DNA from: Escherichia coli
GTDB taxonomy: Bacteria; Pseudomonadota; Gammaproteobacteria; Enterobacterales; Enterobacteriaceae
Reading direction: 5' to 3' (one strand)
Length of the DNA stretch: 388 bases
Assembly (NCBI RefSeq): GCF_003334335.1
Contig: NZ_QOWQ01000199.1
Position numbers and translations under genes: made by a program. The notes under the pieces are model-generated. The model was not told the origin of the DNA. It saw only the letters and a list, made by a program, of their open reading frames with translations, and searched no databases. Of this stretch, positions 48 through 388 are shown in pieces; within the stretch, counting starts at the first letter, position 1, and every line of letters begins with the position of its first letter.

Positions 48-123
<76 letters not shown>

Positions 124-124
<1 letters not shown>

Positions 125-166: not shown

Positions 167-242
167 GGGGCTATAGCTCAGCTGGGAGAGCGCCTGCTTT
201 GCACGCAGGAGGTCTGCGGTTCGATCCCGCATAGCTCCACCA
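167..242 (+). tRNA. alaT/alaU/alaV: tRNA-Ala, anticodon TGC (UGC; reads GCN), 76 nt including encoded 3' CCA
   Basis: Folded by hand into a cloverleaf. Acceptor stem GGGGCUA (167-173) pairs with UAGCUCC (232-238) and includes the G3:U70 wobble pair (G169:T236), the classic AlaRS identity determinant. D-stem GCUC/GAGC. Anticodon stem CCUGC/GCAGG with loop UUUGCAC, anticodon TGC at 200-202. T-stem UGCGG/CCGCA with T-loop UUCGAUC. Discriminator A239, CCA 240-242. Matches E. coli tRNA-Ala1B as I remember it. Confidence 0.97.
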
Positions 243-274: not shown

Positions 275-296
275 AGTGTACCTGCAAAGGTTCACT
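275..296 (+). promoter_or_regulatory. boxB-like hairpin immediately upstream of the spacer boxA (imperfect stem AGUGUACC/GGUUCACU, loop UGCAAA)
   Basis: Seen in sequence: 275-282 AGTGTACC pairs with 289-296 GGTTCACT, 8 positions with one U-U mismatch, around a 6-nt loop at 283-288. A hairpin ahead of boxA is the arrangement in nut-like antitermination sites. Functional assignment is inference; the stem is imperfect. Confidence 0.4.
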
Positions 297-305
297 GCGA
301 AGTTT

Positions 306-318
306 TGCTCTTTAAAAA
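306..318 (+). promoter_or_regulatory. Spacer boxA-like antitermination element (TGCTCTTTAAAAA), the expected binding site on nascent RNA for the NusB-NusE(S10) rRNA antitermination complex
   Basis: Seen in sequence: TGCTCTTTAAAAA at 306-318. It differs by one position from the rrn leader boxA core TGCTCTTTAACAA as I remember it. A second boxA in the 16S-23S spacer of rrn operons is established knowledge. Exact functional boundaries are approximate. Confidence 0.7.
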
Positions 319-346
319 TCTGGATCAAGCTGAAAATTGAAACACT

Positions 347-364
347 GAACAACGAAAGTTGTTC
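347..364 (+). other. Perfect 7-bp hairpin capped by a GNRA-type tetraloop (GAACAAC-GAAA-GTTGTTC) in the tRNA-Ala to 23S spacer; likely a pre-rRNA structural element
   Basis: Seen in sequence: 347-353 GAACAAC is the exact reverse complement of 358-364 GTTGTTC, with loop GAAA at 354-357. Function not established from the window. Confidence 0.45.
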
Positions 365-388
365 GTGAGTCTCTCAAATTTTCGCAAC

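Follow-up and report, generated by a model that had tools for sequence, protein, structure and literature searches.

Local helices within rRNA leaders are the closest described relatives of the hairpin analysed here. Deletion of either hA or hB, two such helices of pre-16S rRNA, caused a 30-40% loss of activity and no growth defect (Warner, Bundschuh and Fredrick 2023, PMC10250234), and Gemler et al. 2024 (PMC11404451) assign leader-trailer helices to 98% of 23S genes, together with variable leader-leader and trailer-trailer helices. Like our hairpin, hA and hB (PMC10250234) and the leader-leader helices of Gemler et al. (PMC11404451) are local structures that stand beside, or branch from, a long co-varying leader-trailer helix downstream of boxA, and they further resemble it in that their presence and sequence vary among Enterobacteriaceae. 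Unlike the 23S-leader hairpin, which is known here from folding and sequence comparison, hA and hB have been tested by deletion; our search of the literature found no probing or mutational work on the 23S-leader hairpin. The pre-23S leader-trailer helix of E. coli itself has been described as ~27 bp (PMC10250234) or ~30 bp (PMC8782170) long. The antitermination element boxA, to which NusB/NusE bind, comes after boxB in rrn operons, and a second set of nut-like elements is present upstream of 23S (PMC10250234, PMC8632103). In the rrnTAC model, the leader is held near the RNA exit channel through boxA and its bound NusB/NusE, and the leader strand is thereby delivered to the emerging trailer (PMC8632103), and the 23S arrangement that we describe below has the same outline.

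The second relevant precedent is StyR-44 (Rfam RF01830), cloned from S. Typhi as npcRNA 44, a 109-nt RNA with seven copies that was detected by northern blotting in both S. Typhi and E. coli and was regulated by growth phase; its discoverers considered that it might be 'merely a metastable intermediate' of rRNA maturation (Chinni et al. 2010, PMC2943607). It has been listed as an sRNA, with no function assigned, in several later transcriptome studies, and all seven copies rise strongly upon carolacton treatment.

The window (the whole stretch of 388 nt that was analysed) is an Ile/Ala-type 16S-23S spacer, as follows from its two tRNA genes, its identity to E. coli and its annotated rrn context, and its final ~146 nt are the 5' leader of pre-23S rRNA. 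Over its full length it is 100% identical to E. coli chromosomes, with a match in 5,426 of the 5,426 complete genomes searched. At the best-matching annotated locus (L001, whose coordinates equal window position + 4000) the order of genes is gmhB, 16S, tRNA-Ile, tRNA-Ala, 23S, 5S, tRNA-Asp and dkgB, and 23S starts at the equivalent of window position 426. Scans of the window found no terminator-like site (a G+C-rich stem followed by a U-run) on either strand, and neither the promoter scan nor the ORF listing gave a promoter-like site or a meaningful ORF overlapping the hairpin. The features discussed below are collected in Table 1.

Table 1. Features of the window, in window coordinates, and hairpin inserts found at the corresponding site of other organisms.
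Feature	Position	Strand	Sequence, partner or basis
tRNA-Ile(GAU)	48-124		ARAGORN
tRNA-Ala(UGC)	167-242		ARAGORN
boxB-like hairpin	276-295	+	GUG-U-ACCU / GCAA / AGGU-U-CAC; fold of 243-388; just 5' of boxA
Spacer boxA	306-318	+	UGCUCUUUAAAAA; fits scan pattern GCTCTTTAAMAATYTGGA
RF01830 StyR-44 match	310-388, cut by window end	+	93.4 bits vs gathering score 54; full match to 418
Distal 5' strand of the predicted extended leader-trailer structure	317-338	+	AAUCUG, UCA, GCUGAAAAUU; predicted partner AGAUUUUCAGCCUGAUACAGAUU in the 23S-5S spacer
Unpaired junction strand of the predicted three-way junction	339-342	+	GAAA; minimum-free-energy co-folds
Full leader-leader helix	343-367	+	basal pairs C343-G367, A344-U366, C345-G365 and bulged U346; fold, StyR-44 alignment
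Core hairpin	347-364	+	7-bp perfect stem GAACAAC/GUUGUUC, GAAA tetraloop at 354-357; sequence and fold
Strand directly 3' of the hairpin	370-376	+	UCUCUCA; predicted partner UGAGAGA of the trailer; co-folds
3' arm of the Rfam 'outer helix'	377-385	+	AAUUUUCGC; local partner 329-338; local fold
E. albertii insert			GAAUAGUC-GAAA-GAUUAUUC; compensated 8-bp stem
Enterobacter insert			ACACACA-GCUCA-UGUGUGU
Photorhabdus insert			GUCGAUAAUAUC-ACCGAG-GUAUUAUUGAC
Xenorhabdus insert			GAAUG loop
Vibrio inserts			long stems, UUCG or AAUU caps

An earlier note, made from the letters of this DNA, had drawn attention to a perfect 7-bp inverted repeat closed by a GNRA tetraloop (GAACAAC-GAAA-GTTGTTC), and both stem and loop were verified, the GAAA loop conforming to GNRA. 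Folded as RNA, the core hairpin has a free energy of -7.4 kcal/mol (z = -4.8) and the full helix one of -10.3 kcal/mol. The same note held such a structure to be unlikely by chance. When the 146-nt spacer part was shuffled 20,000 times with its dinucleotides preserved, ~0.1% of the shuffles contained a GNRA-looped 7-bp hairpin, by a criterion picked post hoc, and ~9% contained some perfect 7-bp hairpin with a loop of 3-8 nt. At each nascent-transcript length tested, from 364 to 1000, the minimum pair probability of the 7-bp stem is 0.94-0.998, and the basal pairs (343-345 with 365-367) have a probability of 0.26-0.67 in the nascent leader. When the trailer is present these values become 0.998-1.0 and 0.90-0.95, respectively, such that the hairpin persists alongside the 5'/3' helix, and both in the leader plus trailer ensemble and in the nascent leaders it pairs within the leader only. 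The hairpin is therefore predicted to be very stable in every folding context. It was also proposed that this is a folding or processing element of the pre-23S leader, and the analysis agrees as far as a structured leader element is concerned; nothing in it points to a specific processing role. With 10 bp and a bulge, the helix is too short to serve as a substrate for RNase III itself.

The hairpin as such is already known, both as part of the catalogued StyR-44 and as part of the pre-23S leader. The match of the StyR-44 model to the full locus (L001 4310-4418, model positions 1-107, 124.9 bits, E = 1.4e-21) ends 8 nt before mature 23S, which is the position of the 5'-side cut by RNase III, and in all seven K-12 rrn operons StyR-44 is located directly upstream of 23S. 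The model also scores above threshold in E. albertii, Citrobacter youngae, Xenorhabdus, Serratia and Shimwellia. Its central 10-bp helix is this hairpin: in the cmscan alignment 343-367 falls on it with zero non-canonical pairs, as does the E. albertii sequence; StyR-44 and the hairpin share locus and helix. The Rfam consensus loop is uAAa, not GNRA. A further difference concerns the surrounding fold, which in Rfam is local only and consists of the outer helix formed by 329-338 and 377-385, this hairpin and a third hairpin, whereas in our co-folds the outer-helix strand pairs with the 23S-5S spacer and the central hairpin alone is common to both.

These co-folds joined the leader to the 23S-5S spacer, that is, the 3' trailer of 23S. 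Their minimum-free-energy structure keeps the classical helix of the 23S termini and immediate flanks, and adds to it a series of predicted leader-trailer pairings that begin next to boxA: AAUCUG (317-322), directly abutting boxA, with CAGAUU; UCA (325-327) with UGA of the trailer; and GCUGAAAAUU (329-338) with AGAUUUUCAGC, at a probability of 0.82-1.0 and in place of the Rfam partner. On the other side of the hairpin, the strand predicted to pair with UGAGAGA belongs to a motif, (G)AGU(C)UCUCAA, that Enterobacterales, Vibrionales and Alteromonadales have conserved and to which GAGAGA or GAGAAC in the cognate trailers is complementary, and further on UUCGC (381-385) pairs with GGCGG of the trailer instead of entering the local outer helix. 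Because both of its flanks (329-338 and 370-376) have complements in the 23S-5S spacer, the hairpin is predicted to be a branch within an extended leader-trailer structure, forming in the co-fold a three-way junction in which 343-367 stands between these two strands. All seven K-12 operons give the same co-fold. Among 13 operons of 10 gammaproteobacterial species for which leader and trailer were available (E. coli, Citrobacter sp. R56, Enterobacter cloacae (2), Photorhabdus thracensis (2), P. asymbiotica (2), Xenorhabdus ehlersii, Ca. Steffania adelgidicola, Vibrio hannami, Moritella PE36 and a Bathymodiolus methanotrophic symbiont), 13 of 13 have a predicted leader-trailer structure that starts right after boxA and bears a leader-only hairpin as a branch. 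It counts against this reading that boxA, which NusB/NusE occupy during transcription, overlaps the two outermost of the predicted leader-trailer pairs.

With mature 23S starting at 426, the hairpin is 62-79 nt upstream of it and ~40 nt upstream of the 5' strand of the classical processing helix. The earlier note had placed it just upstream of that strand, which is only roughly right: the strand begins at about 406, past the end of the window, and the hairpin does lie upstream of it, but inside the extended leader-trailer structure. The classical pre-23S RNase III helix (about 27 bp including H1) belongs to the same precursor structure and is removed in the same maturation pathway, and it receives no strand from the hairpin. 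The predicted whole would span ~55-60 bp, from the 3' edge of boxA to a point shortly before the 5S-proximal hairpin in the 23S-5S spacer, and seems to be conserved from Enterobacterales to Vibrionales and methanotrophs, with co-varying strands. Given that the helix of the literature measures only ~27-30 bp, the extended pairing, though co-varying, is offered as a prediction; the structure may already be drawn among the per-cluster structures in the supplement of Gemler et al. 2024.

Several results suggest that the Rfam outer helix is a competing local structure, at best transient. Its mean pair probability is 0.34 or less in nascent transcripts and falls to ~0 once downstream sequence is added, and the E. 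coli 329-338 strand forms a duplex of -11.6 with the trailer versus -6.5 with the local 3' arm. In addition, Photorhabdus and Xenorhabdus have not conserved this arm. The precursor is probably not described by the local fold curated for StyR-44.

Support for the distal pairing comes from comparison of leader and trailer strands among operons. The 16-22 nt that follow boxA form with their cognate distal trailer a duplex of -16.6 to -23.4 kcal/mol (z = -4.5 to -8.6 versus shuffled trailers, with 0 of 300 shuffles as good). Covariation was then judged from an alignment-free matrix of cognate versus non-cognate duplexes, in place of column statistics; a MAFFT alignment of the distal strands of 12 operons was discarded, being mis-registered for Vibrio, Moritella and the methanotroph. 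Trailers of the same clade mostly bind more strongly, at about -17 to -23 kcal/mol. The Vibrio leader reaches -20.0 and the methanotroph leader -18.4 with their own trailers, as against about -3 to -15 with those of Enterobacterales; an exception is the Moritella leader, which prefers the Vibrio trailer (-20.0) over its own (-16.6). Compensatory differences can be followed between the strands of E. coli (GGAUCAAGCUG with CAGCCUGAUAC), Photorhabdus (GGAACAAGCUG with CAGCUUGUU), Vibrio (UUUGGAAAGCUG with CAGCUUUCCGAA) and the methanotrophic symbiont (GGAAAUCUGUA with UACAGAUUUCC). We regard this covariation of leader and trailer as supportive, not as formally established.

The site between the two conserved flanks behaves differently. 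A scan of species-representative genomes with the boxA-proximal pattern of Table 1 gave at least 120 loci and, among the matches listed, a common layout in Enterobacterales, Vibrionales and Alteromonadales, in which boxA is followed by AAGCUGA, an insert that varies, and (G)AGU(C)UCUCAA. All 44 distinct inserts between AGCUGA and AGUYCUCAA among these matches fold stably into a single hairpin or a pair of them (z = -1.0 to -7.8, the majority below -4), and they do so with unrelated sequences, loops and lengths (about 20-90 nt). Since these hairpins share no sequence homology and vary in length, in register and in the side of the bulge, column-wise covariation across genera was dropped for the hairpin, and its conservation was judged by the folding z-score of each sequence. 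Within K-12, the loop is GAAA in rrnA, C, D and E and GAGA in rrnB, and in rrnH and rrnG the change C353U turns the closing pair into U.G; all of these alleles retain both the pairing and a GNRA loop. The compensatory changes looked for in the stem are thus present, in that C353U keeps the pairing, the 8-bp stem of E. albertii is compensated, and entirely different hairpins occur in other genera. Among the matches listed, GNRA loops (GAAA or GAGA) occur only in the sampled Escherichia, and the other Enterobacterales and Vibrionales have UUCG, GAAUG, ACCGAG, GCUCA or loops of at least 8 nt. The GNRA loop had been taken as a sign of structured RNA, which fits a structured element of the pre-23S leader, but the loop itself is not conserved beyond the sampled Escherichia. 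No hairpin was found between the two motifs in Aeromonas, Zobellella or Moritella among the same matches. To judge from these sequences, pairing is maintained wherever the insert exists, and the element can be absent. Within one genome, that of Photobacterium alginatilyticum (L111-L120), the operon copies carry different hairpin modules.

We consider it reasonably probable, on the strength of the folding and of the comparison among species, that the hairpin is an accessory leader-leader helix at the predicted three-way junction of the pre-23S leader, and that its sequence and loop would be irrelevant. According to this proposal, the hairpin would fold upon transcription, about 25 nt after the spacer boxA, and would stay folded while the leader awaits transcription of 23S and after the trailer emerges. 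Its flanks, 329-338 and 370-376, would then pair with adjacent segments of the trailer, and the hairpin would become the third arm of a three-way junction in a structure running from boxA to the 23S termini. Such a helix would contribute in two ways: it would keep ~25 nt from mispairing, and it would bring the leader strands on its two sides next to each other, ready to pair with the trailer. After cleavage of the proximal helix by RNase III, the hairpin is discarded within the ~109-nt StyR-44 by-product, to whose metastability it probably adds. The structure of the hairpin, its persistence, its place between trailer-complementary strands and the maintenance of its pairing are computational predictions, from which we infer its kinetic and organising role and its modest importance. 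Since the element is absent in some lineages, and since hA and hB of pre-16S are dispensable, its role would be accessory at most and a small effect is to be expected.

By itself the hairpin is a minor element, a catalogued and discarded piece of pre-rRNA. The modestly new point is that it is apparently a branch within a leader-trailer structure much longer than usually described, with the 23S leader apparently paired with the 23S-5S spacer out to boxA. It is possible, and we suggest it tentatively, that the textbook ~27-bp helix makes up only the inner third of a branched, ~55-60 bp leader-trailer structure, with the hairpin acting as the fixed hinge of the three-way junction, the Rfam outer helix as a transient placeholder displaced by the trailer, and the boxA-tethered leader being handed over to the trailer much like boxC for 16S. 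Confirmation of such a structure would extend to the large subunit the delivery of a boxA-tethered leader to its trailer by the antitermination complex, and would counsel caution against labelling StyR-44 a regulatory sRNA in transcriptome studies.

A serious rival to the accessory helix is a fully neutral insert, a palindromic sequence tolerated at a permissive, peripheral site, in which the hairpin forms and adds nothing measurable to 50S biogenesis. The hypervariability of the site in sequence, length and loop, which extends to modules that differ between operon copies of the same Photobacterium genome, is what would be expected from such an insert, and the analogous pre-16S helices can be dispensed with. 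Because Aeromonas, Zobellella and Moritella have no hairpin at the site, any role must be dispensable and the hairpin may indeed be neutral. However, none of the 44 distinct inserts among the matches listed has decayed to unstructured sequence, the hairpin is kept even in a reduced-genome endosymbiont (L093), and the changes among E. coli alleles all preserve the pairing and the GNRA loop. The ubiquity of hairpins among the inserts, together with these pairing-preserving alleles, suggests some purifying selection on pairing, and we regard complete neutrality as unlikely, though by no means negligible.

A trans-acting function, in which StyR-44 itself would be a regulator and the hairpin its stabilising or target-binding module, seems very improbable to us. 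It would account for the discrete, growth-phase-regulated RNA of ~109 nt seen on northern blots (PMC2943607), for the strong increase of the seven copies with carolacton and for the annotation as an sRNA in several transcriptome studies. The abundance of StyR-44, however, tracks rRNA synthesis, its 3' end coincides with the RNase III cut 8 nt before 23S, and its discoverers already allowed for a mere maturation intermediate (PMC2943607). The literature found reports no target or function for StyR-44, and the carolacton paper calls its function unknown. Moreover, base-pairing of the hairpin with a target is disfavoured by the fact that its sequence is not conserved even within Enterobacteriaceae.

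Specific recognition of the loop, in which GAAA would dock into an RNA receptor or bind a protein (for instance, a component of the rrnTAC) in the way that the GNRA-like boxB loop next to boxA is bound by lambda N, is if anything a shade more improbable. Like the boxB hairpins of lambda nut and of rrn operons, the hairpin is short, has a GNRA or GNRA-like loop and lies near boxA in an antiterminated transcript. All Escherichia alleles seen have a GNRA loop (GAAA, GAGA in rrnB, and GAAA again in E. albertii despite a different stem), and its position about 25 nt downstream of boxA recalls the lambda order of boxA then boxB. Against this, Enterobacter, Citrobacter, Photorhabdus, Xenorhabdus, Serratia, Shimwellia and Vibrio have loops other than GNRA, as has the Rfam consensus. 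From the leader through the 5S gene we found no canonical arrangement of the 11-nt tetraloop receptor (CCUAAG...UAUGG); isolated copies of CCTAAG (2) and TATGG (2) occur there, no two of them within 150 nt. The lack of loop conservation and the absence of this canonical receptor from the region make specific recognition of GAAA unlikely; docking into the minor groove of ordinary helices is possible. A role like that of lambda boxB is unlikely as well, given that in rrn operons boxB precedes boxA and that its hairpin, with a GCAA loop, is present here at 276-295, whereas the hairpin at 347-364 follows boxA, with a variable loop and variable spacing; the lambda-nut-like assignment was rejected on these grounds. 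We know of no N protein or N-like ligand in E. coli.

The last reading, a chance inverted repeat with no RNA structure in vivo, is effectively refuted on comparative grounds: perfect 7-bp hairpins are common enough among shuffled spacers, as noted above, but the same site holds hairpins of unrelated sequence in dozens of species, a curated covariance model contains the helix, and the region is transcribed at a very high level within rrn operons. Besides the two tRNAs, Rfam gave weak matches to the window (HPnc0260, MALAT1 and others); these score far below their gathering scores and were set aside as due to chance. The ORF listing for the window consists of eight short ORFs and is mechanical only.

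In the consensus structure of Rfam StyR-44, positions 329-338 and 377-385 form an outer helix around the central hairpin at 347-364; this helix competes with an alternative in which 329-338 pairs with the 23S-5S spacer. The helix has a predicted probability of at most 0.34, which falls to approximately zero when downstream sequence is added, and conservation of its 3' arm is absent in Photorhabdus and Xenorhabdus. Within the 23S-5S spacer, a hairpin confined to the trailer lies directly 3' of the distal strand of the leader-trailer pairing and 5' of 5S, and it is predicted in all seven rrn operons of E. coli K-12 MG1655.

Features of the spacer, the trailer and the K-12 central hairpin (window positions unless marked; L001 is the best-matching E. 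coli rrn locus)
Feature	Position	Sequence or form	K-12 operons
Perfect inverted repeat, 9 bp	123-143	CAAATTTGC-ACG-GCAAATTTG	
Second GNRA-capped hairpin of the window	276-295	GUG-U-ACCU / GCAA / AGGU-U-CAC	
Central hairpin allele	347-364	GAAA loop	rrnA, C, D, E
Central hairpin allele	347-364	GAGA loop	rrnB
Central hairpin allele	347-364	U.G closing pair through C353U	rrnH, rrnG
Trailer-only hairpin, 23S-5S spacer	L001 7379-7402	AUCAGAACGCAGAAGCGGUCUGAU	

The same seven operons (L122-L127) carry three alleles of the central hairpin, and just 3' of the window end a CUCUGAAGUG block replaces ACGAUGAUGAAUCGAAAG in rrnG and rrnD. Both a hairpin branch and the boxA-proximal complementarity between leader and trailer have been kept in the endosymbiont Candidatus Steffania adelgidicola (L093) despite the reduction of its genome to 1.37 Mb. 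Between the conserved AGCUGA and AGUUCU leader motifs, no hairpin is present in Aeromonas popoffii (L109), Zobellella iuensis (L083-L085) and Moritella sp. PE36 (L013); in Moritella the equivalent stretch of the leader is paired to the trailer without a break, with a hairpin branch located further downstream.

The two Enterobacter cloacae DSM 26481 loci (L072 and L073) have identical 23S leaders, whereas their 23S-5S spacers differ, one of them containing an additional ACACUCAAA-type insert; even so, the predicted pairing with the leader reaches as far as boxA for both spacers. The spacer variation in Photobacterium alginatilyticum P03D4 (L111-L120) is mosaic and of a module-swapping kind, with hairpin modules that differ among operon copies of this single genome at the same two sites 3' of boxA.

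Two further structures lie upstream in the window. The GCAA-loop hairpin ends 10 nt before the spacer boxA (306-318), the position expected for an rrn spacer boxB. The inverted repeat begins within tRNA-Ile, whose end is at 124, and overlaps its final two nucleotides; in the Ile-Ala spacer it may form a structure that bears on tRNA 3' processing.
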